DNA of 64,000 bases from Desulforhopalus sp. (GTDB taxonomy: Bacteria; Desulfobacterota; Desulfobulbia; Desulfobulbales; Desulfocapsaceae): the NCBI GenBank assembly GCA_047619065.1, contig JBLHNA010000014.1, positions 14,863 through 78,862 on the forward strand, in the 5' to 3' direction. This document shows, piece by piece, positions 13,049-28,582 of the stretch. Below the pieces are notes generated by a model. It made no database searches. It saw only the letters and a program-made list of their open reading frames with translations, and was not told where the DNA came from. The position numbers and the translations under genes are program-made. Each line of letters starts with the position of its first letter. The first letter of the stretch is position 1.

Positions 13049-13321
13049 GTTGTTCTTTACAGTAGCATCCTCATTTAAGTGAAAAATTCTAGCCGTCACA
13101 TTTTTCCTATCAGAGTCTGAACGAAAACCTGCAAATTTTTTCAAGTTCAAGGCGGGCGATAATTTTAATCAGAAGAATACATTAAGTATTTTGAGGATTA
13201 AAATTTGAGTCCAACGAAGAAATTGGGGAAATTGGCGGTTTTCGGTCGGGCACTAATTATCCGTACAGCTAGACGATGTCTGTCCATAGATGATAAAGTC
13301 AATACTACTCGAGGAACTACC

Positions 13322-15211
13322 ATGTCCAAACAACCCACACCCGCAAAAGAGTTATCCATCTGGGAAGATGCCCAGAAAATGATTGAAAAAGCGAGAAGAG
13401 ACGGGGTGGAAACCGTTTGGGATCGCTTCGAACAGCAGCAACCGGGATGCAAATTCTGTGAGCTTGGATTGACCTGTAAGAATTGCAACATGGGGCCTTG
13501 TAGAATAAGTCTCAAGGAAAATGGCAAAATGCAACGAGGGGTTTGTGGGGCTGATGGGGATGTGATCGTGGCCCGAAATTTCGGTCGCTTTGTTGCCGGT
13601 GGATCAGCCGGACATTCCGACCATGGCCGGGATCTTATTGAAGTCCTTGAGGCCATTACAGAGGGCGAGGCTCCTGACTATAAAATCACAGATGAAAAGA
13701 AATTACGCAGTGTCTCGGTCGAGCTCGGAATTGCTGTGGAAGGTCGAGAAACAATAGCTATTGCCAAGGATTTGGTAGAAGCCTGTTTCTCAGATTTTGG
13801 CAGCCGAAAAAAAGAACTCGGATTTATCTGTCGCGTCCCCGAGGTACGTAAAGAGATCTGGCGAAAGTATAAGGTTATGCCCCGGGGAGTGGACCGGGAA
13901 ATTGCCGAAATGATGCATCGCACTCACATGGGTTGCGACAACGATGCAGTAAGTACCATGCTGCATGCGGCAAAAACATCTTTAGCTGATGGCTGGGGCG
14001 GATCCATGATAGGCACCGAACTCTCCGACATCATCTTTGGAGTCCCTACCCCATCAAAATCCCAGGTAAATCTTGGGGTAATTAAAGCTGATATGGTCAA
14101 TGTCCTTGTACATGGTCATAACCCAGTGGTTTCTGAGATGGTGCTTGCCGCCGCGCGAGATCCGGAAATGATAGCAAAAGCAAAAAAAGCTGGTGCGGAG
14201 GGTATCAATATTGGAGGCCTCTGCTGTACCGGCAATGAGCTCTTAGGCAGACAAGGCATTCCTATGGCCGGCAATCATCTGATGACTGAACTTGCAATCG
14301 TCACCGGTGCAGTAGAGGCCGTTGTGGTTGATTATCAGTGTATTATGCCTAGCATGGTTCAAGTCGCAGCCTGCTATCATACCAAATTTATTACTACTGC
14401 CGATAAAGCCCAGTTTACTGGGGCTACTCATATTTCTTTCAACACCAAAACTGCGGCAAAACAGGCAAGAGAAATAATAGAAATGGCAATAGAGGCATAT
14501 GGGGCACGTGATCAATCTCGAGTGGAGATTCCGGTTGCACCTGTAGACGTTGTCACAGGTTTTTCCAATGAAGCTTTGTTAGAGATGTTGGGCGGGAGTC
14601 TTGATCCGCTCATCGATGCCATAAAAGATGGCTCTATCCGTGGAGTTGTTGCAATCGTCGGATGTAACAATCCCAAATTCCAGCACGATTCACAAAATGT
14701 TGGTCTGGCTAAAGAATTGATTAAAAGGGATATCCTGGTTCTTGCAACCGGTTGCATTACGACGGCAGCAGGAAAGGCAGGACTTCTGGTTCCGGAGGGA
14801 AGTGAAATGGCCGGTCCAGGATTGAAAAAGATCTGTTCCGCTTTAAATATTCCTCCTGTTCTCCACTTTGGGTCCTGTGTCGATAATTCAAGAGTCATTC
14901 ATCTCTGTGGCTTAATAGCGAATGCACTGGGTGTTGATATCTCCGATCTGCCTGTTTGGGGTGCCTCCCCTGAATGGTATTCTGAAAAAGCAGTTGCAAT
15001 TGGCTTATACAGTGTGGCATCCGGAATCCCTGTGCATATAGGAACACCACCACAAATAACCGGTTCTAAACTCGTGACAGATATTGCTTTAAATGGCTTG
15101 GAAGATTTGTTTGGAGCTGCGTTTCTTGTTGAACCTGATTATGCAAAGGCCGCAGAAAAAATGGATGAAAGGATCATAGCGAAGCGACTTGCCCTCGGCC
15201 TTTCGGCCTAA
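13322..15211 (+). CDS. cooS: Anaerobic Ni-Fe-S carbon monoxide dehydrogenase catalytic subunit
   Basis: CKFCELGLTCKNCNMGPC, VLVHGHNP, GGLCCTGNE, IVGCNNP and FGSCVDNSR are the CooS cluster-ligand motifs. ATG at 13322 with a GAGGAA RBS (the track extends to a TTG at 13205). Confidence 0.95.
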   Translation: MSKQPTPAKELSIWEDAQKMIEKARRDGVETVWDRFEQQQPGCKFCELGLTCKNCNMGPCRISLKENGKMQRGVCGADGDVIVARNFGRFVAGGSAGHSDHGRDLIEVLEAITEGEAPDYKITDEKKLRSVSVELGIAVEGRETIAIAKDLVEACFSDFGSRKKELGFICRVPEVRKEIWRKYKVMPRGVDREIAEMMHRTHMGCDNDAVSTMLHAAKTSLADGWGGSMIGTELSDIIFGVPTPSKSQVNLGVIKADMVNVLVHGHNPVVSEMVLAAARDPEMIAKAKKAGAEGINIGGLCCTGNELLGRQGIPMAGNHLMTELAIVTGAVEAVVVDYQCIMPSMVQVAACYHTKFITTADKAQFTGATHISFNTKTAAKQAREIIEMAIEAYGARDQSRVEIPVAPVDVVTGFSNEALLEMLGGSLDPLIDAIKDGSIRGVVAIVGCNNPKFQHDSQNVGLAKELIKRDILVLATGCITTAAGKAGLLVPEGSEMAGPGLKKICSALNIPPVLHFGSCVDNSRVIHLCGLIANALGVDISDLPVWGASPEWYSEKAVAIGLYSVASGIPVHIGTPPQITGSKLVTDIALNGLEDLFGAAFLVEPDYAKAAEKMDERIIAKRLALGLSA

Positions 15212-15388: not shown

Positions 15389-17023
15389 TTAGAAAAGTCT
15401 ATGGACAATTCGGCCGTCGAAAACGGTCATATCTACATGTGCTTCAGCGATTGTAGAAGGTGGGCCGGTTAGGATGTTTTGGCTGAGCACTGCCAGATCG
15501 GCCTTCTTGCCTGGACCAATAATGCCCATATCGGTGGCATTGTGCACCTCCGCCGGAACAGAGGTATAAGCGTTCAGTGCCTCGGCAACGCTGATCCGGG
15601 AGTCGGGGTACCAGCCACCGTCAGGTGTGCCATCAAAGCGCTGCCTGGTCACCGCTGCATGAATCGCCGGCAGCGGATCGGGACTGCATACCGGACAATC
15701 GGAACTGAACATGACCGGTGATCCTGTATCTATTAACTCCCGAAAGGCGTAGGCCCATTTGCCTTTTTCTGCAACGACACTGTCGATGAGACTAATGTCC
15801 AGAATCATATTCACCGGGGTGACATTGAGTGCCAGGTTCAGCTTGCCGAGCCGTTTCATGTCTTCCGGCCGGATCATCTGCACATGTTCAATACGATGTC
15901 GAAATGGTGGTAAAGGTGTCGATGTCTTCCTGCGCTGTAATTCAACATTTTCGTAAATGTTGATTATCTCACGGTTGGCACGATCTCCAATGGCATGAAC
16001 CATCACAGAAAGGCCCGCTTGATCGGCTTTTTTGATCTCTTTTGCCAAGAGGTCCATATCCATCAACGGCATGCCGCAGTCGGCATCAAGATAGGGATCG
16101 ATCATCCATGCCGTACGCGCCCCCATGCCACCGTCTGAAAAAAACTTCACATGGCCGATCCGCAGTCTGTCGCTACCAAAACCGGAACGAAGGCCAAGGC
16201 CGATGATATCGTCAAGTTGGTGGCCGGGTAGACTCATCCAACATCGAAGGTCGAGGAGCTTCTCCTGTTCGAGTCTCTGGAAACACTGAAAAGATCTACC
16301 GCCATCTGCATCTGCCATTAGACGTGTATCATGAATACCCGTGATGCCCCAGCGGTGAAGAGCCTCCATCCCATCTTTAAAGGCATCGACCACCTGGCCC
16401 GTCTCTGGTATGGCAATAGCCCTGCGAACGAGATTAATAGCAAGCTCCCGCAGGATCCCGGTAGGCTCTCCTGCTTCATCCCGTTCAATTCGCCCTTCTG
16501 GCGGGTCCGGCGTGGAGCTGTCAATTCCAGCTAAGCGGAGCGCCATAGAATTGGCGACCGCCAGGTGGAGATCACAGCGCCAAAGCAATACCGGATGGTT
16601 CGGGGCAACCCTGTCGAGGCCTTGTCGGCTGGGCTGGCGTGGTATACTCCACTCGGTTTCGTTCCAGCCCTGCCCCATGATCCACTCGCCGGGTGCAAGG
16701 GTCTGGGTGGTCCTGTCTATGCGACCAAGGAGTTCGTCAAGGCTGTTGAGATCGTCCAGTTGTAGGTCCCGTCGTTTCAAGGCCCATTCGTAAAAATGAA
16801 TATGGCTGTCGAAAAATCCAGGGACGACCAGGCGTCCGTCAAGATCAATCTTTTCGGTAGTTGGTCCTGCCAGGTGAAGCATATCTTGGCTACTGCCAAG
16901 TGCTACAATGCGTCCCTGGTTAATGGCCAGGGCGTCCGCTGTTAGGAGCAGAGGCGTATCGATATTTCCACTTGCCAGTCGGGCATTGTAGAGAACGATT
17001 TCAGGTGTTCGATATTCTTTCAT
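15389..17023 (-). CDS. Metal-dependent amidohydrolase (Amidohydro_3 / YtcJ-like)
   Basis: VVPGFFDSHIHFYEW (HxH), VMVHAIGDRA, HRIEHVQM, FSSDCP. The ATG at 17023 lies 4 nt after the upstream stop; the track start at 17074 overlaps the upstream gene. Confidence 0.85.
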   Translation of the reverse strand: MKEYRTPEIVLYNARLASGNIDTPLLLTADALAINQGRIVALGSSQDMLHLAGPTTEKIDLDGRLVVPGFFDSHIHFYEWALKRRDLQLDDLNSLDELLGRIDRTTQTLAPGEWIMGQGWNETEWSIPRQPSRQGLDRVAPNHPVLLWRCDLHLAVANSMALRLAGIDSSTPDPPEGRIERDEAGEPTGILRELAINLVRRAIAIPETGQVVDAFKDGMEALHRWGITGIHDTRLMADADGGRSFQCFQRLEQEKLLDLRCWMSLPGHQLDDIIGLGLRSGFGSDRLRIGHVKFFSDGGMGARTAWMIDPYLDADCGMPLMDMDLLAKEIKKADQAGLSVMVHAIGDRANREIINIYENVELQRRKTSTPLPPFRHRIEHVQMIRPEDMKRLGKLNLALNVTPVNMILDISLIDSVVAEKGKWAYAFRELIDTGSPVMFSSDCPVCSPDPLPAIHAAVTRQRFDGTPDGGWYPDSRISVAEALNAYTSVPAEVHNATDMGIIGPGKKADLAVLSQNILTGPPSTIAEAHVDMTVFDGRIVHRLF

Positions 17024-17027
17024 ATGC

Positions 17028-18065
17028 TTACAGTAAAAAACCTTGCTGGAAAGGGTCGTTCTGATCAAGAACAAATTGATGATAACCGGTGATTGTGGCG
17101 CTTCCTCTTACCTGACCCATAATACCGCTAAATTTTCCGATGGTCAATTCTCGCATAATTCTGCCTTCGAAAACAGTGCCCAAGAGGCTTGCATTGCGGT
17201 ATGTCTGGCCGAGGCTGAGCCTGCCCTGGTGATGAAGCAGTGTCATCTTCGCTGTGGTACCAGTGCCACAAGGGGATCTGTCCATATGTGATTCGCCGTA
17301 TACCACCACACTTGAGCCCTCTCCTCCCTCAGAGTTTTCAGCGTAGAATTCGGTAACATCAATGGTGTTGACCTCGGGGCGCTGGGGATGATAAACCTTC
17401 AGCTCCCGGTTGGCGGCATCGATTATGGCCATGCCCAGGGAAATAAGTTTCTGGCTGTTTTCGCGAGTGAGCTCAATGCCGACGGATGCCGCCGATACCA
17501 TGGCGAAAAAACCGCCAACACAGACGATATCTACGGTAACCTGGCCAAAACCCGCCACTTCCAGATGACAATCAGTCTTAAAAACAAAGGATGGTACCAT
17601 ATCGATACCGACCGAGAGAACACGTCCATTTTCAACTCGTGTATGGGTCTGCAGAGGGCCGGACGGAGTGTCAACGGTGATAATAGTATCGCCGTCCTCC
17701 GCCTCGATGACTCCGGTCTCAATCAAGGTAGTAACAGCGCCAATGGTGGCATGACCACAGAGGTAGGGATAACGCCTGGCATCCATATAAATGAGGCCGA
17801 ACTGCGCCTCTGGGCTCACCGGTTCGGTAACCACTGCGGCAAACATATCTCTATGGCCTCTGGGTTCCTGAGTGAGCAGCTGGCGGAGATGGTCGTAACG
17901 AGAAGCAAAAAAATCTTTTTTCTCTTTGATAGTGCTCCCGGGTAGCTCATTTATACCTCCTATCAGTAACCTGGTAGGCTCTCCTTGGGTATGGGAGTCA
18001 ATGGTGATAAATGGGTTGGGGTATCGGTGAGAAAAGCCTTTTTTCACCTGATCGAGTTTGAGCAT
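17028..18065 (-). CDS. Proline racemase / 4-hydroxyproline epimerase family enzyme (Cys/Cys type)
   Basis: SHTQGEPTRLLIGG, LCGHATIG, DRSPCGTGTTAKM. Both catalytic Cys positions are present. Confidence 0.85.
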   Translation of the reverse strand: MLKLDQVKKGFSHRYPNPFITIDSHTQGEPTRLLIGGINELPGSTIKEKKDFFASRYDHLRQLLTQEPRGHRDMFAAVVTEPVSPEAQFGLIYMDARRYPYLCGHATIGAVTTLIETGVIEAEDGDTIITVDTPSGPLQTHTRVENGRVLSVGIDMVPSFVFKTDCHLEVAGFGQVTVDIVCVGGFFAMVSAASVGIELTRENSQKLISLGMAIIDAANRELKVYHPQRPEVNTIDVTEFYAENSEGGEGSSVVVYGESHMDRSPCGTGTTAKMTLLHHQGRLSLGQTYRNASLLGTVFEGRIMRELTIGKFSGIMGQVRGSATITGYHQFVLDQNDPFQQGFLL

Positions 18066-18217
18066 GAATAACCTAAACGTGTTCTGCTTCGTAACAATTT
18101 AGCAACAAGGCAGATGGAAAAATTTTATGATCCCATTAATTTTAGAGAACTCATAAAAGTCCAATTTTAAGAGTGAAATTCACAACAACAAAGTAGATGT
18201 TTTTTTTTACGACACCG

Positions 18218-19321
18218 TTAGTTTTCAATGGCGAGCAGATGACAGTGATGCGGTGCCACCTGCACGCTGACTTTTTCGCCGATATCGTAGATTCTGGTCC
18301 GCATCATGCTGATGATATGTATTTCCCGGCCGGATCCCAGCTCGATAAAATAACTGACCTCTCCCCCCATATAGCTGCGGTCCTTGATGCGGCCTTCAAA
18401 GGAGTTCATACCCTCTTCGGCGTTGAATTCATCCTTGGGAAAAAGATCAAAACGCTGGGCGCGGACTACCAGCTCGACCATATCGCCCTTTTTGAAATTG
18501 CCCTTATTGTCCGCTATGAGAAGGTCTCCGGTTTCAATCTTGATGTTGACGTGCTCTTGGTTGACATCGACGATCTCGCCCTTGATAAAATTAGAATGTC
18601 CGAGAAAATCGGCGACAAAATGATTAACAGGCTCATTATAGACGGTCTGCGGGTCACCTTCCTGCTGTTTCCGACCAGCCTTCATCACCAGAATCTTATC
18701 CGACATGGACAGTGCTTCACGCTGGTCATGGGTGACAAAGATGGTGGTAACGCCCAATATCTGCTGGAGGTTGTCAACTTCCCGGCGCATTTCTTCGCGC
18801 AGGTTTTCATCGAGGGCAGAGAGCGGTTCGTCCATCAACAGCACATCGGGTTCGATAACGATGGCCCTGGCCATTGCGATACGTTGCTGTTGTCCGCCAG
18901 AGAGCTGGCTTGGCATACGGTTTTCGACGCCTGGTAAGCGAACCATTTCCAGGGCCCCCATTACCTTTTCACGGATCTGTTTTTTCGACACATCGCGGTA
19001 TTTAAGGCCAAAGGCGACATTGTCATAGATGGTCTTGTGGGGAAACAGAGCATAGTTTTGAAAAATCATCCCCAGGTTGCGCTTGTGGATAGGGGTGTCA
19101 TTGATCCGTACACCCTTGATAAAGATATCGCCCTCTGTCGGTTCTTCCAGTCCGGCGACCATCCGCAGCAGGGTAGTTTTACCGCAGCCTGATGGGCCCA
19201 GCAAGGTGACCAGACTACCTTCTTCGATGTCAAAATCCATTTTTTCCACGGCTGTAACCTTGCCGTACTTCTTCATTATCCCTCTGAACTGCACCAGGGG
19301 TTGTTTCTTGCCGGTAGCCAA
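18218..19321 (-). CDS. ABC transporter ATP-binding protein (PotA-like)
   Basis: Walker A GPSGCGKTT, signature LSGGQQQR, Walker B LLMDEPLSALD, and a C-terminal TOBE-like extension. Confidence 0.9.
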   Translation of the reverse strand: MATGKKQPLVQFRGIMKKYGKVTAVEKMDFDIEEGSLVTLLGPSGCGKTTLLRMVAGLEEPTEGDIFIKGVRINDTPIHKRNLGMIFQNYALFPHKTIYDNVAFGLKYRDVSKKQIREKVMGALEMVRLPGVENRMPSQLSGGQQQRIAMARAIVIEPDVLLMDEPLSALDENLREEMRREVDNLQQILGVTTIFVTHDQREALSMSDKILVMKAGRKQQEGDPQTVYNEPVNHFVADFLGHSNFIKGEIVDVNQEHVNIKIETGDLLIADNKGNFKKGDMVELVVRAQRFDLFPKDEFNAEEGMNSFEGRIKDRSYMGGEVSYFIELGSGREIHIISMMRTRIYDIGEKVSVQVAPHHCHLLAIEN

Positions 19322-19418
19322 TGTACTCTGTCTCCCTGTTTTTGATTATGTACTGCAGAGCCGAACACCTTGTTGGTGTTCGGCTCTTATTCTTTTAACT
19401 ATAATTAATAAAACAGTA

Positions 19419-20582
19419 TCAACTCCCTGCCTTTATGCGGTCCCATTTCTCTGTCCATTCAAGCTGGTTGGCGTTCCAGTAGGCTGGATCGGCAAAGAGA
19501 TAGCCATCGAGCTTGCCGGTTGGATCAAAAGCTGGCATCTTCTTAATCTTGTCGGTCAGGGCAACCTTGGTCGGATCAAGACTTGGCGGATAGTTTTGTC
19601 CTTCGGCTACTGCTATGGCCGCAGCTGGCTCAAGCATAAAGTTGAGAAGCTTCTGGGCCACTTCCATATCAGTACCCTTGAGAACAAAGAGATATTCCAT
19701 CCACGAGTAGGTACCTTTAGGTGAAAGATAGCCGATGGGATGACCTTCCAACTGCAGCGCGGCGACTCTGCCGGACCAGCCGACCGTGGCATATATTTCC
19801 TCATTGGCAAGCAGGCTCATCAGCTCGGCTCCGGAGCTCCAGTATTTTTTCATCAGGTCACGCTGTTCCCGGAGTGCAGCCCAGATGGCCTTGAGGTCGG
19901 TAATATTGTTGGGGCTCTGGCCTGTGTGCAATGCGGCATACCACATGTTTGTTCTAAAATCCCCCCCCCAACTACCCAACTTACCTTTCAGCTCTTTGTC
20001 CCACAAGAGGGAAGCGCCCAGTTTTTCGGCCTTTTCCTTGCTGATTTTGTTGGTGTTATAGGCGATACCGGTCTGGCCAAGATCGTAAGGAACTGCAGAA
20101 AGCGTTCCCTTGGTGATCTCCCGCAACGGTTTGATCATGGAGGCCATGACGTTTTTGAGATTCGGAATTTTCGATTCATCCAGAACTGATGCAAAACCTA
20201 ACTCTGCGTAGCGGGCATAGTCGAAAACCGCGCTAAGATGGGCTATATTAAATTCGCCCCCCGGTGGATAGGAAGCTTTAACCCGGGTCAGGTATGAATT
20301 CATATCACCGAATTCTCCATCGATGACTTTTATTCCCGTCGCTTCAGTAAACGGCTTAAAGGCAAATTTCTTGAAGGCTTCAGAGGTCGAACCGCCCCAT
20401 CCATCGAAGCGGATTGAATCGGCGGCAAAGGCATTGGTGACAGCATTGCCAAAGGGTGACCCCACAAGGCCTATGGAGGCGCCAGCCAAAGCGAGGTATT
20501 TGAGGAAATGGCGACGGCTGAGTTGGCCGCTTTTATACGCTTCATGCACCCGGTCCAGTTTTTCTTTCGTTACTGTTTTCAT
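19419..20582 (-). CDS. ABC transporter periplasmic substrate-binding protein (PotD/PotF-like)
   Basis: Signal-like N-terminus RRHFLKYLALAGASIGLVGSPFGNAVTNAFA. Size and operon position fit a family-1 SBP. Confidence 0.8.
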   Translation of the reverse strand: MKTVTKEKLDRVHEAYKSGQLSRRHFLKYLALAGASIGLVGSPFGNAVTNAFAADSIRFDGWGGSTSEAFKKFAFKPFTEATGIKVIDGEFGDMNSYLTRVKASYPPGGEFNIAHLSAVFDYARYAELGFASVLDESKIPNLKNVMASMIKPLREITKGTLSAVPYDLGQTGIAYNTNKISKEKAEKLGASLLWDKELKGKLGSWGGDFRTNMWYAALHTGQSPNNITDLKAIWAALREQRDLMKKYWSSGAELMSLLANEEIYATVGWSGRVAALQLEGHPIGYLSPKGTYSWMEYLFVLKGTDMEVAQKLLNFMLEPAAAIAVAEGQNYPPSLDPTKVALTDKIKKMPAFDPTGKLDGYLFADPAYWNANQLEWTEKWDRIKAGS

Positions 20583-20607
20583 TGGTTCTCCTTTTTGAAG
20601 GGTTAAT

Positions 20608-21405
20608 CTAGGATTTTACTTTGGCAAACTTGCGTGACAGATACCCTGCCAGCAAGGGTGTGGTAACTGTCATCACGATCATCACTGTACCAAGTGCGTT
20701 TATCTCAGGGCTGATTGAATTTCTCAGCATGCTGAAAATTTTGACCGGAACGGTCTGGTTTTCGGCGGTGGCCCAAAAGAGTGTTGCCGTAATATCATCA
20801 AACGAGATGGTAAAAGCAAAAAGTGCTCCGGCAAGAATAGCTGGTAGAAGAAGTGGAAAAGTAACTTCCATGAAGGTCTGAAATCCATTGGCCCCCAAAG
20901 ACTTTGCGGCCTCTTCGTATTCTTTTTTTATACCGACCAGGCGTGCCTGGACGATTAACAGGACATAGGGCAAGGTCAATACGACATGACCGATAAGCAG
21001 CAGGACAAAACTTTTCGGTTGCTGGAGAAAGCGTAAAAACAGTAGTAGGGCAACGCCCAGGACCACTTCTGGAATCATGATAGGGGAGAGTAACAGGGTG
21101 TTTAGGGTATTTTTGCCGGGAAAATCAAAGCGGATAAAGGCCAGGGCTGCCATGATGCCGATACTTGTTGATATAACCGCTGTCAGTCCACCCAGGATCA
21201 AGGAATTTTTAAAAGCATCGATGATCGAATCATTCTGTGCCAGTTTGATAAACCAACGAAAACTGAAGCCTTCCATAGGGAAGATGCCGAATTGCTTGGG
21301 GTTGAATGCCAGAACAATGACCACCACTATGGGAGTAAACATGAAGATATAGACAAGGATGGTATGAAGTTTTATGAGTCTCCAGCCAATAGAAGATTCT
21401 CGCAT
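20608..21405 (-). CDS. ABC transporter permease (PotC-like)
   Basis: Six hydrophobic segments and the EAA loop EAAKSLGANGFQTF. Confidence 0.85.
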   Translation of the reverse strand: MRESSIGWRLIKLHTILVYIFMFTPIVVVIVLAFNPKQFGIFPMEGFSFRWFIKLAQNDSIIDAFKNSLILGGLTAVISTSIGIMAALAFIRFDFPGKNTLNTLLLSPIMIPEVVLGVALLLFLRFLQQPKSFVLLLIGHVVLTLPYVLLIVQARLVGIKKEYEEAAKSLGANGFQTFMEVTFPLLLPAILAGALFAFTISFDDITATLFWATAENQTVPVKIFSMLRNSISPEINALGTVMIVMTVTTPLLAGYLSRKFAKVKS

Positions 21406-21408
21406 GGG

Positions 21409-22275
21409 TTAATTTCCCTGAAAGCTTTTGAAGATTTGATTGATCCCCAGATAACGGTTGTAGGTCCAGACAATAACAAAGAGCAATACCAGCAAAATAA
21501 CACTGATAGCCGAGCCAAAAGGCCAGTCAAGGGTACCGATAACCCGCTTAAAAATAAGATTGGCGATCATGTCGTTGCCCGGTCCGCCAAGGATCATAGG
21601 CGGCAAATAGGTGCCCGCAGTGAGGACGAAGACCAGCAGAGAGCCGGCACTCAGCCCGGGAAGACTGAGGGGCAGTGTCACCTCTCGGAAGGCCTGCCAT
21701 TCGGTGCAGCCCATGGAGCGGGCCGCCTCAAGGAGACTTTTATCGATACCTTCAAGGCTGACATAGATGTTGAGTACCATAAATGGCAGTAGATACATGA
21801 GCAGTCCCATAAGGACCGTGAATTCATTATATAGCATCGAAATAGGGGTTTCTATGAGACCAACGCTCAGGAGAAAATGGTTAATGAGCCCGGAATCACC
21901 CATGATATTGATCCAACTCATGGTGCGGATGATAAAGCTGACCCAGAAAGGCAACATAATGAGCAGGAGAAATATCCGTTTATGGCGACTGGTGCTGCGG
22001 TAGAAAAAATAGGCGGGAACATAGCCCATGAGCACGCAGATAAAAACCGTCTCAAAAGAGATACGAATGGTTCGGAGGAGGATTTGAGGATAAAAAAAAT
22101 CTTCAAAAAATTTAGCGTAATTGCCAAACTGAAAAGCGGCGATATCTGCTCCACTTGGGGCACGGAGCCAGAAGCTGTAGACGATGATAAAACAAACAGG
22201 AATGACGAGGAGTAAAAAAACCGCGGTCATTGAAGGGGCCAGCAGCGCCCATGGTTTCCAGCTGTTAGATTTCAT
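21409..22275 (-). CDS. ABC transporter permease (PotB-like)
   Basis: EAA loop EAARSMGCTEWQAF. 3-nt gap to the next permease gene. Confidence 0.85.
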   Translation of the reverse strand: MKSNSWKPWALLAPSMTAVFLLLVIPVCFIIVYSFWLRAPSGADIAAFQFGNYAKFFEDFFYPQILLRTIRISFETVFICVLMGYVPAYFFYRSTSRHKRIFLLLIMLPFWVSFIIRTMSWINIMGDSGLINHFLLSVGLIETPISMLYNEFTVLMGLLMYLLPFMVLNIYVSLEGIDKSLLEAARSMGCTEWQAFREVTLPLSLPGLSAGSLLVFVLTAGTYLPPMILGGPGNDMIANLIFKRVIGTLDWPFGSAISVILLVLLFVIVWTYNRYLGINQIFKSFQGN

Positions 22276-22326: not shown

Positions 22327-23115
22327 TTACCCGGTTGTTTTGCCCGCAGGCAGAAGCTCGGAAAGGACCCTGGCTGTTTCTTGTATCATTTCCCCATACT
22401 TCGCCTTTATTTCAGCACCATTATGTTCCAATACCGAAAAATCAAAGGACACAGCACCTACTCCAAGGCCCGTGATGGAATCATACAGCGGTGCGGCAAT
22501 AGCCAGTACACCGGGTAGATATTCTTCGTCCACCATGGCAAAACCCCGTCTTTTGGTAATCTCAATTTCTTCGAAAAGTTTCACCTTATCGACGATGGTC
22601 TTAGGGGTTTTCTGGACCAGTTCCATCGCGGTAATCTTTTCGTCAATGAGTCCATCCGGCAGGCTGGATAGATATGCCTTTCCCAGGGCTGTGTTGTGCA
22701 GGCTGTTTTTGGAGAATTCCGGCAACCTGTAGGTAAGGGTTTCCGTTGCTTCTTTATGATAGATACGCATCAGGGTGTCATTCTCCGCGAATACTACATC
22801 TATACTAATATTGCTTTTCCGGTTGATCTCGTTCACGACCTCTTTGATCATTTTCAAATTGTCTATGGAGTGCATCAAATTGATGCATAAGAACAGACAG
22901 TGCAGAGAAGGTCGGATCACCTTGGTTTTCAGGTCTTTTTCCAGATAACCCATTTCCACCAGCGTATTGATATACCGGTAGGTTGTGGTCATATTAAGGC
23001 CCAGGATTTTGGCAATTTCACTCTGGGTCAGCGTGGGAGAATCTTTCGTAAAAAGGGCCAGTATATTCAGTCCTTTTTCGAGTGATTTCGAAAAGTAGTA
23101 TTTTCCTTTTGACAT
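22327..23115 (-). CDS. IclR-family transcriptional regulator
   Basis: N-terminal wHTH SPTLTQSEIAKILGLNMTTTYRYINTLVEMGYL plus a C-terminal IclR-type effector domain. Confidence 0.85.
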   Translation of the reverse strand: MSKGKYYFSKSLEKGLNILALFTKDSPTLTQSEIAKILGLNMTTTYRYINTLVEMGYLEKDLKTKVIRPSLHCLFLCINLMHSIDNLKMIKEVVNEINRKSNISIDVVFAENDTLMRIYHKEATETLTYRLPEFSKNSLHNTALGKAYLSSLPDGLIDEKITAMELVQKTPKTIVDKVKLFEEIEITKRRGFAMVDEEYLPGVLAIAAPLYDSITGLGVGAVSFDFSVLEHNGAEIKAKYGEMIQETARVLSELLPAGKTTG

Positions 23116-23141
23116 TTTGTTTTGTGATGAATTATTATCGC

Positions 23142-23172
23142 ACTATAATAGTTTACAAGTTACTATTATAGT
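23142..23172. promoter_or_regulatory. Perfect 11-bp inverted repeat in the divergent iclR / kamA-like intergenic region (candidate IclR operator)
   Basis: ACTATAATAGT (23142-23152), 9-nt spacer, ACTATTATAGT (23162-23172). Confidence 0.5.
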
Positions 23173-23224: not shown

Positions 23225-25699
23225 ATGGGAGAGCATAAAATGGCGGCGGATCATGAAGTATTATCAATTACTTACCAGAATTCAGGCGAAGAAAACCAGG
23301 TGCTCCTCGCTGATCTAGAAGCTGCGCTGACTGGTTTTATGGAACATCTCGGGGTGCGCCCACTAATCGATCAGACCTTTTCAGAAGTAATCCTGACGGG
23401 TGACGGCAGGACTAAGATGGACAGACTACTTGCTGCTTGTGGGTATGGTGGTGATGCTCGTGGCTTTTTCGATGAATTGCTGGAACAGCTGGGTCGAGCG
23501 GATGGTACGGAAAAAATCATTATCAACAATATAGAGATGCCCCACCTGTTGCTCATGTCCATCCTTGAAGTCGCATTACCCGGCAATAGATTTGTCTCTA
23601 TCAAGACGACTGAGCATCTGGAAGAAGTCACCAATATAAAGATTAAGGAATCGGATCGGGCCGACATGCAGAAGGTAATCGATACATATCCTGTCCGGCT
23701 TTCCATGCATACGGTGCGGCAGATGCGGGTCTCCGGCAATGTCGCCTATCAGTATTTGCCATTTGTTGAAGAGCTTGGCACCATCGGCCACACCAATACC
23801 TGGATCGGTCAATTCCACCAGGGACTACTGGAACAGATGTATCAGAATCGGGTGATTTTTCTCCTCAACATGGGCTGCCCTGTTTATTGCCGGTTCTGCT
23901 TTCGAAAACATAAAGAGGAACGAAACCAGACGAATCCGACCACTGAGGCTGTTCGAGAGGCGGTGGAACATGTCATGAATTCTCCTTCCATTAAAGAGAT
24001 TATCATTACCGGTGGCGATCCTTTTATGAACATGGAAAATATGGCGAGTGCCATTGACGGCCTGATGGAGGTCGAGCATGTCCAGACCCTGCGCCTTGCT
24101 ACCCGCTCCATTGCCTACTATCCGCATTTGTTTCTTGGCGATGATGCCAGATTGCTCAATTATCTCAAGCGCAAGAATCTTGAGCTGCAGGAGCGTGGTA
24201 AGCGGATGGAGATTGCCACACACTTTATCCACCCGGATGAGATTTCGCCACAGTGCCTGATGATCATCTCCGAACTTGTGAAAAACGGTATTACGGTCTA
24301 TATACAGACTCCTTTTTTGAAAGACTGCAATGATGAAGGTCCAGAACTGGTAAGGCTGTTCAGCCTGCTTCGTGGTGCCGGAGCTGAGTTGCACTATATC
24401 TATATCCCCTGCAGTCCTATTCACGGTAATAGCGTGTACTGGTCGCCTATTGCCAAAGGTTTGCAGGTTGGCAGTTACTTGAGAGCACATCTTTCCGACC
24501 GGGTCGTACCGAGAATCTGCACGGCCACGCCCATTGGCAAGATGGACTGGAACTCAAGTGGCTGGGCCGTCGAACCAGTCGCAGAAAACGAGAACTTTAT
24601 CTGGATTCGCAGCCCCTATACCCCGGAGTATTTCAAGCAGTTTGCCCCCATTGCCAATGAACTGGAAAATATCCGGGTCAATGAAGAAGGAACCCTCGAC
24701 ATCCAATACATGGCGAAACTTGGCGATGATGCCCTGTTCCTCGGTTCTCGTCCACTGCGCCTTGGCGGGGGGATTTTTCAGCCGGAATCAACCGATGCGG
24801 TTATGGCGGCAATACGCTCCGGCGAAACGTTATCTCCTTCTTTGGTCGATACCAGATCGCCGATGATTTCCCGGGTGCATGAAACCCGGGTTGAGGTTGA
24901 TGCACACTGTACGGAAGAGGATCTCTATTATATTCGTGGAGATGAACGCATTACTGATGTGTTGATTGTCTCAGAAAAAGACGGTGTGGAATCGTTATTC
25001 CAGGTTGCAAAAATTATCCAGGTTCTGGAAGATATTCCTCATGTTAACGCTGTTCGTCTACGCAGTCTCATGTTTAATTATGAGCCCGAACGTTATACTG
25101 CTGAAGTAATCGATAAACTGGCAAGTCTTAATAAACTGAGCATTGTCAACCCGAAACGGCTCGAAATAGAGACCCAGTTTCTGGTGCCGGATGAGTTTCG
25201 GGCCGTACATGGCCGGCTGGCAGGATTGTTAAAAAACAAGGGTATAACTGTCTATAACAATACCCCGCTTCTTGGCAGGATTAACGATACTCCGGACATT
25301 ATCCAACTTCTCGCTTATAACTGCCGGGAGGCAGGGATTGAATTTCATCATCTTTATATTGCCGGCCTACCGATACAAAATAAGTGGAATGCCAGCAACC
25401 CGGTAGCACTCTATGATGTTGTGGATATTGCAACCCGGGTCCGCCGTGACGGCAGCGGTAGAGAGATACCCCGTTATATTATCCGCACGGTTGTGGGGGA
25501 AGTGGATTTTGGACTATCTTCCACCATTGAGGGTACAGATGAGGCGTTGTCGGTAAGACTGTTACCCTATGATCTCTCCTACTTCAAAGGATTATCGGTT
25601 AATTTTGAGTGGCCAGAGAACGTCAGGGAAGATGATGAGGGTAAACCGATCGTGCCAGTAATCGGGCTGCTGAAAACTACTGAATTCGCACTGTCATAA
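23225..25699 (+). CDS. Atypical 824-aa KamA-family radical SAM aminomutase-like protein. It has an N-terminal extension and an internal duplication; the second barrel lacks the Fe-S/SAM motif.
   Basis: CPVYCRFC at 23876-23899 (CxxxCxxC), followed by IITGGDPFM, HVQTLRLATRS, GITVYIQTPFLKDCNDEGPE..LHYIYIPCSPIHG. The second copy is ITDVLIVSEKDG, HVNAVRLRSLMF, GITVYNNTPLLGRINDTPD..FHHLYIAGLPIQN, with no Cys triad. Confidence 0.8.
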   Translation: MGEHKMAADHEVLSITYQNSGEENQVLLADLEAALTGFMEHLGVRPLIDQTFSEVILTGDGRTKMDRLLAACGYGGDARGFFDELLEQLGRADGTEKIIINNIEMPHLLLMSILEVALPGNRFVSIKTTEHLEEVTNIKIKESDRADMQKVIDTYPVRLSMHTVRQMRVSGNVAYQYLPFVEELGTIGHTNTWIGQFHQGLLEQMYQNRVIFLLNMGCPVYCRFCFRKHKEERNQTNPTTEAVREAVEHVMNSPSIKEIIITGGDPFMNMENMASAIDGLMEVEHVQTLRLATRSIAYYPHLFLGDDARLLNYLKRKNLELQERGKRMEIATHFIHPDEISPQCLMIISELVKNGITVYIQTPFLKDCNDEGPELVRLFSLLRGAGAELHYIYIPCSPIHGNSVYWSPIAKGLQVGSYLRAHLSDRVVPRICTATPIGKMDWNSSGWAVEPVAENENFIWIRSPYTPEYFKQFAPIANELENIRVNEEGTLDIQYMAKLGDDALFLGSRPLRLGGGIFQPESTDAVMAAIRSGETLSPSLVDTRSPMISRVHETRVEVDAHCTEEDLYYIRGDERITDVLIVSEKDGVESLFQVAKIIQVLEDIPHVNAVRLRSLMFNYEPERYTAEVIDKLASLNKLSIVNPKRLEIETQFLVPDEFRAVHGRLAGLLKNKGITVYNNTPLLGRINDTPDIIQLLAYNCREAGIEFHHLYIAGLPIQNKWNASNPVALYDVVDIATRVRRDGSGREIPRYIIRTVVGEVDFGLSSTIEGTDEALSVRLLPYDLSYFKGLSVNFEWPENVREDDEGKPIVPVIGLLKTTEFALS

Positions 25700-25710
25700 G
25701 GAGAGAAATT

Positions 25711-26376
25711 GTGCATTATCCATTTTCACTGTATAGCCGAAAAATTAAGCATCTGCCTATTTTTAAGGACTTGCAGGGCGATCCTTATATTGCTGATCTC
25801 TCACAAAACAGCAACCTTCTTGGTGCAATAGACATGCGTGACCAGCGAGGGTTTCAAAAAAATCTCGAAGAGAAGATGGGGGCAGAATACAGCTGGGGGG
25901 TGTCTGCTTACCTCGAAAACAGGGAACCACTCCTCTCAGATTGCCCTCAGATGGTGGCGGAACAACGATTTATCCATCTGGGCCTTGATATTATTGTCCC
26001 CCTTGGCATGCCGCTGCATGCACCACTCAATAGCAGCGTAGCCGAGAGCGGATATGAAAGCGGCGAAGGTAATTACGGCGGTTTTGTTCTTCTCAGACAC
26101 GACAGCCCATATTTTCAGACTTTTTTTAGTCTTTATGGTCACCTCCGCCGTAGCAGCTTGCCGGATACTGGCAGAACTTTTGCTGCAGGTGAACCCTTTG
26201 CTGAAATTGGTGATTTTAACGAAAACGGCAACTGGTTCTACCACACGCACCTCCAGATCATAACGAAAAAGGGGTTGGACTTGGGATATATTGCCAAAGG
26301 CTACTGTAACGAAAAAGATCTGGTGGAAATGGATACACTTTGCCCATCTCCCATTCCTCTATTCAAGGTGTTTTAG
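25711..26376 (+). CDS. Cytosolic M23/LytM-fold metallopeptidase-like protein, translationally linked to the kamA-like gene
   Basis: HLGLD (HxxxD) and YHTHLQ (HxH) are zinc-ligand motifs. No signal peptide. GTG start 11 nt after the upstream stop, with an AAGGAGAG RBS. Confidence 0.6.
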   Translation: MHYPFSLYSRKIKHLPIFKDLQGDPYIADLSQNSNLLGAIDMRDQRGFQKNLEEKMGAEYSWGVSAYLENREPLLSDCPQMVAEQRFIHLGLDIIVPLGMPLHAPLNSSVAESGYESGEGNYGGFVLLRHDSPYFQTFFSLYGHLRRSSLPDTGRTFAAGEPFAEIGDFNENGNWFYHTHLQIITKKGLDLGYIAKGYCNEKDLVEMDTLCPSPIPLFKVF

Positions 26377-26406: not shown

Positions 26407-27246
26407 CTATACCTGCTTGTGCCAGATATTCATGCTTTCCAGGGAGCCTGAGATCTGAGTATTGTTGATCAGGGTACCAGCGAAAGTATAGCTATTTCTG
26501 GCAAAAGTGATATTCATCCCGAAGCTGGTCGCCCGGGCAATGGTGTAGCAGGTCTTGATACCTGTTTTCGCCACCAGATCTTCCAGCATGTGCAGCAGAA
26601 CATTGGCGAAACCAAAGCCGCGACAGTCAGGATGGGTTGCAAAGTCCGTCATCTCGGCATTTGCCATTTTTTTATCGACTTCCGCCGAGGAGAGCGCCAA
26701 TAATTTCTCATCTTGCCAGATTCCCGCGTAGACCACATTTTCGGCCATGGTCTGGCGCAGGTATTCTGGATCGTAGATGGGAAAAGGATAGCTTTCGAAA
26801 ACCTGCCGATAAAGCTCGCTCATCTGCGGGCAATCGAGTGGCGTTGCAACACGGCATTCAAGTCCCTGGCGGATTTCTTTTTGTTGTGGTGATGGTGCAG
26901 CTTCTTCCTGTGCTTTTTCAATAACAGTCAGGACCCGCTTGAAATCCGAGTCAATCATTCGTTCTGAATCATAATAGCGGGCCATGAAGAGGCCGTCTTC
27001 CTTGCCGTTATAAAAATTCGGGATAGCGGCTTCAAGCCGGTAACCGCCTTGCTTAAACTGCGCTTTGGCATATGCTGGGACCTTAGCGAATATTTTTGAA
27101 TAGCCGCATCGCAAGGCCAGTTCATGTATGTGGTCGATAATATCGGGCAAATCGGCTCTATCCAGTTTCATCAGGTAGACCCGATCATTTGCAGGACCGT
27201 GTTGTATTAAGGATTGACCGAAGGATTCGATGTGATCAGTTTCCAT
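26407..27246 (-). CDS. ablB: GNAT acetyltransferase, beta-lysine N6-acetyltransferase type
   Basis: 279 aa with a C-terminal GNAT fold ([21 protein letters not shown]). It overlaps the stop of the upstream lysine 2,3-aminomutase gene by 11 nt, the classical ablA-ablB arrangement. Confidence 0.7.
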
Positions 27247-28582
27247 TACGTCGTTCCATACGTGTATTATTTTTTGGCGTCAAACTGATCGTCTTGTCGC
27301 AGTCTGAAAGCAGCCTTTCTATCCCGGTTATTGCAGTTTCATCTGCATCGTCAAGATTAAGCTGCAGATGGCAGCTATCGCAATTGCGGTCACAGAATTT
27401 TGCTTTGTAACTATCCGGTTCCTTGTACGTTGTGATCACCCCTTCGTAATTTCGCAACACCACCTTGTTGGTTGACTGCGAGATTAAATAGTTGGGAGTG
27501 AGGGGGATCTTACCTCCGCCACCCGGCGCGTCGACCACATAGGTTGGCACAGAAAAGCCACTGGTGTGACCGATCAACGCTTCCATGATCTCAATTCCCT
27601 TACCGACAGGGGTGCGAAAATGTGAGAGTCCTTCGGAAAGATCACATTGGTATAGGTAATACGGACGCACGCGATTCTCAACAAGTTTATGGACCAAAGC
27701 TTTGATGATTCTCTGACAGTCGTTGACGCCGGCTAACAACACAGACTGGTTACCAAGGGGGATGCCTGCATCTGCCATTTTTTTGAGCGCCTGACGAGAA
27801 GAACTCGTCATCTCACGAGGATGGTTAAAATGAGTATTGACCCAGAGTGGATGGTGCTTTTTTAACATATTGACCAGGTTGTCAGTGATGCGATACGGCA
27901 GGACAACGGGCATCCGGGTCCCAATACGAATGACCTGAACATGCTCAATCTTCCTCAGTTCGGTGAGAAGCCAGTCAAGGTGGATATCACTCAGCATCAA
28001 AGGATCACCGCCGGAGAGCAATACGTCGCGCACTTCGGGGGTATTGCGTATATAGTCAATTCCTTTACTGATCTGATCGCGATTGGGGATTGAATCAACA
28101 TCGCCTACTTTGCGTTTGCGAGTACAATGGCGGCAATACATGGAGCACACATTGCTGACATGAAAAAGCACCCGATCGGGATAACGATGAGTGATTCCCG
28201 GTACCGGACTGTCCTTGTCTTCGGCCAGCGGATCAGACATGTCGCACTTTTCAATCTGCAACTCTTTAGAGTTAGGAAAAGCCTGACGGAAGACAGGGTC
28301 GTTGCGAAAGTCATTTCGGTCTATCAGGGAAAGATAATAGGGCGTGATCGACATGGGGAACTTTTTCATGGTCAAGGCGACCTTCCGTCTTTCAAGCGGT
28401 TCTAGTTCGATATTCAGCAGTTTTTCGAAGGTCTCAACATCGGTGATAGAATTTTTAAGCTGCCAGTGCCAGTTTTTCCACTGTGAGAGATCAACCTTTT
28501 CATCACTAAGATGATCGGCTATTTGTTGCTGATTGTTTGAAAAAATATTTATTGTCATAATAAGACAGATCCTTGCATGCAA
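27236..28582 (-). CDS. ablA: Lysine 2,3-aminomutase (radical SAM, KamA/AblA)
   Basis: [13 protein letters not shown] (CxxxCxxC), [28 protein letters not shown], and a C-terminal Cys-rich tail. GGGAGGGGG RBS before the ATG at 28582. Confidence 0.88.

Follow-up and report, generated by a model that had tools for sequence, protein, structure and literature searches.

A tandem KamA-family radical SAM protein with one live and one dead module in Desulfobacterota: a probable aminomutase for a substrate other than lysine

What does an enzyme of the KamA family do when two KamA modules stand in one chain and only one of them keeps its cofactor residues? This question is raised by a stretch of 64,000 nucleotides (nt) of Desulforhopalus sp. 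(contig JBLHNA010000014.1, positions 14,863 to 78,862), hereafter the window. It encodes a tandem KamA-family radical S-adenosylmethionine (SAM) protein, which we named KamA2x, followed by a protein with the M23/LytM fold. The two open reading frames (ORFs) described in an earlier note on this DNA were both present, the first of 824 amino acids (aa) at 23225–25699 (+) and the second of 221 aa with a GTG start. KamA2x represents a known kind of enzyme in a variant architecture that is conserved and uncharacterised, and a new substrate class is plausible for it. It is likely a working enzyme of the aminomutase type that carries a dead twin and acts on a substrate other than lysine.

The residues of KamA2x are numbered here from nt 23225. 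The real start is probably the ATG at 23240, which would give a protein of 819 aa, because GGGAGAG lies ahead of 23240, M6 is invariant and the homologues are 819–820 aa long. Invariance refers throughout to 25 aligned family members that are 56–90% identical to the window protein. A word-indexed protein search returned more than 960 full-length homologues of 813–843 aa, with at least 70% identity among the best 120. An exhaustive search gave approximately 16 full-length clusters at 50% identity, reaching down to 37% identity. The distant long-form homologues lay on short contigs, and one further Amidohydro_3 adjacency was found among them, at 42% identity. The gene was present in 35 species genomes, spread over Desulfobacterota with the exception of one Sphaerochaetaceae metagenome-assembled genome. 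The carriers include Desulfopila, Desulforhopalus, Desulfocapsaceae, Desulfosarcina, Desulfobacula, Desulfobacteraceae and Desulfuromusa, and two of them, Desulfopila sp. IMCC35006 and IMCC35008, are in culture; the former has no AblB, and the latter has AblB in the operon. The gene is rare in the phylum (3/401 genomes in an even sample of the phylum).

A long ORF of this kind could be an artefact, either because a frameshift error has merged two neighbouring kamA-like genes or because the gene is a pseudogene in decay. Nothing was found in favour of this. The uninterrupted frame of 813–843 aa recurs in 35 independent genomes, complete chromosomes among them, and in more than 900 metagenomic proteins. 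The ratio of nonsynonymous to synonymous substitution rates (omega) is below 0.1 in both halves, and the seemingly stand-alone C-half proteins are contig-end fragments. The chance of an artefact is negligible. Mis-assembly, which the earlier note had named as a possible objection, is excluded because the tandem architecture is conserved across these metagenomic proteins and species genomes. The sources name the homologues only "radical SAM protein" or "lysine 2,3-aminomutase", and a literature search returned no description of the family or its gene cluster. The scores of KamA2x fall below every curated KamA cut-off of NCBIfam, so the statement that no member has been characterised holds as far as could be searched.

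The internal duplication is real. Residues 259–489 aligned with residues 580–806 at 29% identity (E = 9e-22). The C-half is related to KamA, since it matched the neighbouring AblA (E = 1e-8) and every hidden Markov model (HMM) of the KamA family gave two separate matching stretches in KamA2x. At about 95–125 aa, the extra N-terminal domain is shorter than the ~200 aa that had been estimated, because residues ~126–205 belong to the N-terminal helical region of KamA itself; positions 17–327 of TIGR03820 map onto KamA2x residues 125–438. The first module had been described as a complete KamA core. The CPVYCRFC (23876–23899) and GGDP (24011–24022) motifs are in place, while the LAM_C domain and its zinc-binding cysteines are absent. 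PF12544 (LAM_C) had no match in KamA2x versus 153 bits for the window AblA, and no Cys was found between K439 and residue 500. In lysine 2,3-aminomutase (LAM), the zinc-binding cysteines of LAM_C tie the dimer together.

The second copy lacks the Cys triad, has SEKD where GGDP is expected, and carries E759 in the position of the lysine that binds pyridoxal 5'-phosphate (PLP). The cluster loop has been lost, whereas the barrel motifs stand in the order of the first copy: RLRS, RLEIETQF, VYNNTPLL..IND, EFHHLY and GSGREIPRYI. Approximately 50 residues of the dead copy are invariant in the family alignment, many of them polar, such as RLEIE 645–649, EFH 706–708 and RR..GSGRE 740–747. Mean pairwise identity was 79% in the live core, 58% in the dead core and 43% in the N-terminal domain. 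Against the orthologue of locus L003, where the synonymous distance is unsaturated, omega was 0.045 in the live core, 0.086 in the dead core and 0.15 in the N-terminal domain. Judged by these substitution ratios, the dead copy is under purifying selection.

A tree was calculated from both halves of 20 long proteins and 26 single-module KamA relatives. The N-halves, C-halves and single-module KamAs formed three clades, with support of 98, 100 and 95% in the Shimodaira–Hasegawa-like approximate likelihood-ratio test, and the C-half branches were two to three times longer. Because the tree is unrooted, only the pairwise scores (own N-half E = 9e-22 versus AblA E = 1e-8) favour an intragenic duplication as the origin of the tandem. 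Split-gene ancestors with separate N-half and C-half genes were also considered and none was found; the stand-alone C-halves P0163 and P0175 are taken as fragments because both begin at contig ends. Among single-module proteins, P0167 is the closest relative, and its gene neighbourhood is an unrelated one of sugar modification.

The AlphaFold2 model of KamA2x, run on the 25-sequence alignment, had a mean predicted local distance difference test score (pLDDT) of 84.4 and a predicted template modelling score (pTM) of 0.89. The low-confidence parts were the cluster loop and adjacent active-site loops (186–201, 224–231 and 397–403), which were modelled without cofactors. The high pTM indicates that the three parts pack as one compact body. 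This compact single-chain model fits a covalent pseudo-dimer, an arrangement that we infer. LAM (PDB 2A5H) was the only strong Foldseek match (E = 3e-15), with generic radical SAM barrels ranking next, and 2A5H was also the sole sequence match in a PDB profile search (E = 1.8e-24). The N-terminal domain was confidently modelled (pLDDT > 90) as an alpha/beta fold, and no sequence match to its residues 1–125 was found in Pfam or the PDB. No other part of KamA2x evolves as fast. The domain could be regulatory or a docking site for an electron donor.

The first module retains the residues of a working aminomutase. C218/C222/C225, R227, GGDP, Y206, R209 and K439 were invariant in the 25 sequences. 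Profile alignment to 2A5H placed the Cys triad on the cluster cysteines and GGDP on the SAM motif, and equated R227 with Arg134, Y206 with Tyr113, R209 with Arg116 and K439 with Lys337. In LAM, Asp293 and Asp330 bind the epsilon-ammonium of lysine. Arg134 holds the alpha-carboxylate, Tyr113 and Arg116 the PLP phosphate, and Lys337 the PLP, as Lepore et al. 2005 are reported to have described. Both of these lysine-binding positions are replaced in KamA2x, D293 by S397 and D330 by A434, invariantly in the 25 sequences. Asp is kept at both positions in the window AblA and in the canonical KamA beside KamA2x in locus L026. Two other LAM residues are also changed, Arg112 to M205 and Tyr287 to H390. 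The PLP loop is two residues shorter than in LAM (P-IGK versus PGGGGK), a trait shared with a set of uncharacterised single-module KamA relatives.

The earlier note had proposed a different substrate and had suggested looking at the PLP lysine and the substrate-specifying residues. K439 is present, both Asp positions are changed, and the cluster, SAM motif and carboxylate Arg are kept, which supports the proposal. Free lysine is an unlikely substrate because the Asp293 and Asp330 positions are invariantly replaced. The same residues lead one to expect an alpha- or beta-amino acid whose side chain is neutral. In L034 (14800–16065), KamA2x adjoins a KamA paralogue of a third kind. This paralogue has 421 aa and a LAM_C domain, with Gln and Thr at the lysine-binding Asp positions, which makes it another non-lysine KamA.

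The family models place KamA2x inside the superfamily and outside its named members. It scored 35.6 bits for the radical SAM domain PF04055, above the cut-off of 29.5. It remained below the cut-off for the KamA family model TIGR00238 (151.9 bits in two stretches versus 199.2), for TIGR03820 (AblA/KamA; 150.8 versus 525.4 bits), and for TIGR04368 and TIGR04468 (138–144 versus 600–650 bits). Compared with LAM (Clostridium subterminale KamA, PDB 2A5H, and the methanogen AblA, TIGR03820), both halves of KamA2x have the same fold, and the live half has CxxxCxxC followed by the carboxylate Arg, GGD(P), and the PLP lysine with its Tyr and Arg neighbours. The differences are the two KamA modules per chain, the second without cofactors, the extra N-terminal domain of about 125 aa, the missing LAM_C domain and Cys4 zinc site, the Ser/Ala pair and the shortened loop before the PLP lysine. 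The glutamate (TIGR04368) and arginine (TIGR04468) 2,3-aminomutases also belong to the KamA family, and KamA2x scores similarly against their models and the other KamA models; those enzymes are single-module proteins of 350–420 aa. To our knowledge, only a few substrates of radical SAM/PLP 2,3-aminomutases are known, namely lysine, glutamate and arginine. In glutamate 2,3-aminomutase, Lys and Asn occupy the places of the two LAM Asp residues, against Ser and Ala in KamA2x. Ruzicka and Frey are said to have reported in 2007 that Glu/Arg-type specificity is switched by replacing both LAM Asp residues.

The M23 gene starts 11 nt downstream of KamA2x with its own ribosome-binding site, GGAGAG, which overlaps the KamA2x stop codon, and no terminator-like site was seen between the two genes. 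The M23-like protein exceeded the gathering cut-off of PF01551 (34.0 versus 28.7 bits). As had been noted, HxxxD and HxH are retained: H89-x3-D93, H144 and H178-x-H180 are invariant in 15 orthologues. The absence of a signal also held, since the N-terminus MHYPFSLYSRKIKHLPIFKDLQGDP, as read from the sequence, has neither a hydrophobic segment nor a lipobox. The model (pLDDT 88) has a LytM fold, and Foldseek matched it to LytM, lysostaphin, ShyA and Csd with a probability of 1.0 and a core root-mean-square deviation of 2–4 Å over ~95–130 residues. The best family match was the central domain of NF004799 (E = 2.5e-27), which is not a cell-wall enzyme. NF004799 comprises kinase–M23–class III aminotransferase fusions of approximately 1000 aa, in which the M23-like domain is likewise cytoplasmic and adjoins a PLP enzyme. 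The window protein thus shares the LytM fold, HxxxD, the catalytic His and HxH with LytM, lysostaphin, ShyA, Csd1–3 and NF004799 (PRK06148). It differs from the M23/LytM metallopeptidases in lacking a signal peptide, a lipobox and a cell-wall-binding domain, and in having family-specific extensions of ~85 aa at the N-terminus and ~35 aa at the C-terminus. A 1044-codon frame in L066 (G354:C2:703225-703596) shares an M23-like segment with the window M23 protein at 33% identity and is probably a PRK06148-type kinase–M23–aminotransferase fusion; this genome has module-A-like genes (see below) and no KamA2x.

The M23 gene directly follows KamA2x in 24/32 loci with at least 800 nt of downstream sequence, a frequent but not obligatory co-occurrence with the long KamA. 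The family (930 proteins) mirrors KamA2x in size and taxonomic range. Five genomes lacked the adjacency; in two of them an orthologue (61–62% identity) lies elsewhere, once beside a GNAT of the AblB family. The idea of an amidase-like partner is supported by this adjacency and the invariant zinc ligands, with the activity itself predicted. We regard the M23 protein, from its sequence and gene order, as a frequent, dispensable and probably catalytic partner of KamA2x. Peptidoglycan is an unlikely substrate because the protein is encoded with a cytoplasmic amino-acid enzyme.

A second link leads to AblB, the beta-lysine acetyltransferase. The canonical ablA-ablB genes that had been seen next to the pair are there, ablB-ablA being convergent with the M23 gene. 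In the phylum sample, AblB-family genes above the curated cut-off occurred in 16/401 genomes, including all three KamA2x carriers. A count of 8/11 KamA2x genomes had such genes versus 13/398 others, and in 12 of these 13 KamA2x-negative genomes AblB stood next to a canonical AblA (69–83% identity). AblB lies immediately upstream of KamA2x in L021/L060, L034 and L058, is the last gene of the module A operon in L010, L017 and L031, and stands beside the M23 gene in L040. Among the KamA2x loci, ablA-ablB was found only in the window and L004, and in both it abuts KamA2x-M23. The GNATs associated with KamA2x scored 282–340 bits against the beta-lysine acetyltransferase model, with a cut-off of 205. 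As in the AblA-AblB pathway and B. subtilis yodP-kamA, a KamA-family aminomutase is paired with a TIGR03827 GNAT; in many genomes the gene for this GNAT adjoins KamA2x, the KamA2x operon or the M23 gene. KamA2x differs in having no lysine-binding Asp and in being accompanied by an importer, a proline-racemase-like enzyme and hydrolases. These differences suggest turnover or another order of steps, rather than lysine to beta-lysine to acetyl-beta-lysine. A functional link between KamA2x and AblB or acetyl-beta-lysine metabolism appears fairly probable.

The importer and its companion enzymes form a gene group on the opposite strand of the window, module A. The IclR gene heads this operon in the window. 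Module A, that is, the importer, a proline-racemase-family (ProRac) enzyme and an Amidohydro_3 hydrolase, accompanied KamA2x in 20/27 loci having an 8 kb flank, and in L022, L025, L029 and L030 both form one co-directional string. The two are separable, because module A lies 750 kb from KamA2x in G206 and occurs without KamA2x in G260. The ProRac protein is nearest to genuine proline racemases (7PB3, E = 2e-84), and the binding protein is polyamine- or GABA-like. In G260 (L061:2839-16988), IclR-ABC-ProRac-Amidohydro_3 is followed by genes for an omega-aminotransferase, 3-oxoacid CoA-transferase A/B, an ArgE/DapE deacylase and a carbamoylase-type M20 amidase, a set through which the same imported compound may be processed along a different downstream branch. 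This set probably resembles B. subtilis yodT-S-R-Q (beside yodP-kamA) and the acetylated beta-lysine catabolism of Pseudomonas B4. Several schemes for ProRac and Amidohydro_3 were considered (prolidase-type, cyclic amidine or lactam opening, ectoine-like), and none was supported by the data. Neither radical SAM nor amidohydrolase genes are mentioned as neighbours of proline racemases in a survey of such neighbourhoods (eLife 2014).

The regulator is divergent from KamA2x, as the earlier note had stated, and the intergenic region holds a candidate operator. This is not the perfect palindrome that had been described. It consists of 11-nt inverted-repeat arms around a 9-nt non-palindromic spacer. 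The arms occur at the same offset in 13/18 loci that have an IclR gene, and the spacer between them is variable in sequence, as would be expected of a real operator. The left arm overlaps the TATAAT of a promoter-like site reading toward KamA2x. The promoter matches are consensus matches only, and they are no more numerous in this region than expected from shuffled sequence. This arrangement of sites is consistent with IclR repressing both divergent units. The coordinates of all features are listed in Table 1.

Table 1. Features of the KamA2x locus in the window (residue numbers count from nt 23225).
Feature	Position	Strand	Remarks
Module A	15389..22275	-	two ABC permeases, PotD-type binding protein with twin-arginine translocation (TAT) signal, ATPase, Cys/Cys ProRac enzyme, YtcJ-like Amidohydro_3 hydrolase
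IclR-family regulator, divergent from KamA2x	22327..23115	-	family match
Two overlapping sigma-70-like promoter matches	23109..23149	+	TTGACA-18-TATTAT (11/12), TTGTGA-16-TATAAT (10/12)
Candidate IclR operator	23142..23172	.	ACTATAATAGT-N9-ACTATTATAGT; left arm overlaps promoter-like -10 hexamer
KamA2x coding sequence, tandem KamA-family radical SAM protein	23240..25699	+	probable true start; longest ORF from 23225
Family-specific N-terminal domain, residues ~1-125	23225..23599	+	alpha/beta fold, least conserved part
Live KamA module, residues ~126-500	23600..24724	+	KamA N-helical region and radical SAM/PLP core; HMM, 2A5H, Foldseek
CPVYCRFCFR	23876..23905	+	Cys triad C218/C222/C225 for [4Fe-4S], then R227 (LAM Arg134 equivalent); invariant
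GGDP, residues 263-266	24011..24022	+	SAM-binding motif; invariant
S397	24413..24415	+	at LAM Asp293 position; invariant; alignment to LAM
ATPIGK	24524..24541	+	A434 at LAM Asp330 position, K439 at PLP-binding Lys337 position; alignment to LAM
Dead KamA module, residues ~546-805	24860..25639	+	same barrel motifs in same order; cofactor residues gone
Cytoplasmic M23/LytM-fold protein, 221 aa	25711..26376	+	GTG start, ribosome-binding site GGAGAG; predicted Zn site H89, D93, H144, H178, H180
Canonical ablB (26407-27246) and ablA (27236-28582)	26407..28582	-	TIGR03827 332 bits, TIGR03820 783 bits; AblA keeps both Asp

Several further neighbours were observed. The gene cooS (anaerobic CO dehydrogenase) lies at 13205–15211 (+) of the window, a few kb from the KamA2x cluster. 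In G206 (L065:5057-8988), cooS and genes for a pyridine-nucleotide-disulphide oxidoreductase and a CooF-like ferredoxin are directly upstream of KamA2x and co-directional with it. cooS was not seen near KamA2x in the other 35 loci. Since it occurs there only in the window and G206, its proximity is treated as a coincidence, which it probably is; conceivably, the radical SAM cluster could be supplied with low-potential electrons in this way. In L020 (4001–12876), KamA2x-M23 is followed by an NMT1/TauA-type ABC transporter in place of the PotD type and, further on, by genes for a KamA-like protein of 349 aa, a protein of 278 aa and a TrkA-domain K+ channel, which looks like an osmoadaptation setting. 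Directly downstream of KamA2x in L026 (12600–15067) are a second ProRac-family gene and a gene for a non-Pyl MttB-family methyltransferase, and a full lysine-fermentation set (KamA, class-III aminotransferase, KamD and BKACE) lies within ~25 kb on the same contig. KamA2x was also considered as a B12-independent substitute for beta-lysine 5,6-aminomutase (KamDE). This was rejected: in the L026 genome, a complete KamD (772 bits) and BKACE are encoded close to KamA2x, and BKACE is absent altogether in G000, G390 and G406.

We lean towards reading the locus as an IclR-controlled uptake and turnover island with a 2,3-aminomutase for a substrate of the N-acylated lysine or beta-lysine type. The live module would work like LAM. 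Its reduced [4Fe-4S] cluster would cleave SAM to a 5'-deoxyadenosyl radical, the radical would abstract a hydrogen from the substrate held as an external aldimine on PLP (K439), and the amino group would then migrate between C2 and C3. The dead module would stand in for the second subunit of the LAM dimer, so that each chain has a single active site. The substrate most likely has a neutral, N-acylated side chain because the Asp pair is replaced by Ser/Ala, the carboxylate Arg is kept and the locus is tied to AblB-type N-acetyltransferases. Our best guess for the substrate pair is N-epsilon-acetyl-L-lysine and N-epsilon-acetyl-beta-lysine, in which an acetamide would replace the ammonium otherwise bound by Asp293 and Asp330; N-epsilon-acetyl-lysine as the specific substrate is a tentative proposal.

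The probably co-transcribed cytoplasmic M23-fold zinc enzyme may hydrolyse an amide of the pathway, for example by removing the acetyl group, and its action as a deacylase is likewise possible at best. The IclR-controlled PotD-type importer would bring in an osmolyte of the acetyl-beta-lysine type for turnover. With the hydrolases (the M23 protein and Amidohydro_3), the imported or stored osmolyte could be recycled to lysine and acetate, and with the GNAT the pathway could run in the synthetic direction. Taken jointly, these steps would make KamA2x the first radical SAM/PLP aminomutase acting on an N-acylated amino acid (interconverting N-epsilon-acetyl-beta-lysine and N-epsilon-acetyl-alpha-lysine) as a covalent live/dead pseudo-dimer, with an M23 deacetylase as the first small-molecule, non-cell-wall catalysis by a LytM fold and a new route by which marine sulfate reducers take up and recycle the methanogen-type osmolyte; as a whole this combination is doubtful.

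The same neighbourhood can be read in other ways. KamA2x could be a catabolic 2,3-aminomutase for an imported amino acid of the proline/ornithine family, such as ornithine, N-delta-acetylornithine or another cationic compound. The importer, ProRac and the amidohydrolase would then prepare the substrate, and AblB-like acetylation would only protect the terminal amine, as in the acetylated beta-lysine route. Module A as the most constant neighbour, its co-directional strings with KamA2x, the likeness of ProRac to genuine proline racemases, the polyamine- or GABA-like binding protein, and the omega-aminotransferase and ArgE/DapE deacylase that follow the module in G260 speak for this. However, the associated GNATs exceed the beta-lysine acetyltransferase cut-off, module A and KamA2x are separable, and no ornithine- or proline-specific enzyme (ornithine cyclodeaminase, D-proline reductase) was found in the locus. 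We judge it rather unlikely. Another possibility is that KamA2x is a second, unusual LAM that feeds beta-lysine to the AblB-type acetyltransferase and replaces AblA where no ablA is adjacent. Most KamA2x genomes indeed have an AblB-family gene without an adjacent AblA, next to KamA2x or its operon, and R227, K439 and the SAM motifs are kept. Yet both epsilon-ammonium-binding Asp are invariantly replaced, the score of 151 bits is far from the 525-bit AblA cut-off, and a canonical AblA gene directly adjoins KamA2x in both the window and L004. Moreover, most KamA2x genomes hold another KamA paralogue of 410–505 bits, and G408 has KamA2x with no AblB found. A second LAM is thus quite improbable.

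The enzyme might also use the KamA fold for other chemistry, for instance radical epimerisation, deamination or the modification of peptides, and the M23 protein would then be a true peptidase that cleaves a small peptide. M23 enzymes are peptidases, the family falls below every KamA cut-off, it has an extra N-terminal domain, and M205 and H390 replace LAM Arg112 and Tyr287. The invariant PLP lysine, the Tyr113/Arg116 equivalents, GGDP and the carboxylate Arg, in contrast, are the pattern that marks the aminomutase mechanism. The 35 loci showed neither a gene for a precursor peptide nor a SPASM domain, nor any partner typical of ribosomally synthesised and post-translationally modified peptides; the neighbours are small-molecule importers and amino-acid enzymes. 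This makes other chemistry very unlikely.

Several points weigh against the N-acylated lysine scheme itself. Its substrate is inferred from two residue changes and the gene neighbourhood, and Ser and Ala at these positions would fit other neutral or small substrates too. The roles of the ProRac-like and Amidohydro_3 proteins, the most constant neighbours (20/27 loci), are unexplained by an acetyl-lysine scheme, and this is its main weakness. Neither partner is universal: no M23 orthologue was found in two KamA2x genomes that are at least 99% complete (G206 and G390), and no AblB-family gene in the KamA2x genomes G401, G404 and G408. The enrichment of AblB may come partly from a shared saline habitat, and the genomes are related, so that it is suggestive and no statistical proof. 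Binding or scaffolding, instead of hydrolysis, could be what the M23 protein contributes, and its closest family match is the central domain of uncharacterised kinase–M23–aminotransferase fusions.

If the KamA2x clade does have a new specificity, and an inactive twin fused to the enzyme takes the place of the homodimer partner, this would extend 2,3-aminomutase chemistry. It would also be a natural case of an obligate oligomeric radical enzyme made into a single chain with one active site, a form useful for engineering beta-amino-acid biocatalysts. The M23/LytM fold is not known to act on anything but cell walls, and a cytoplasmic catalytic M23 enzyme would widen the scope of the fold. The cultured Desulfopila carriers make the hypothesis directly testable. 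For the sulfate reducers of sediments, the tight link to AblB-type acetyltransferases and the dedicated importer point to an undescribed osmolyte route of the N-acetyl-beta-lysine type.

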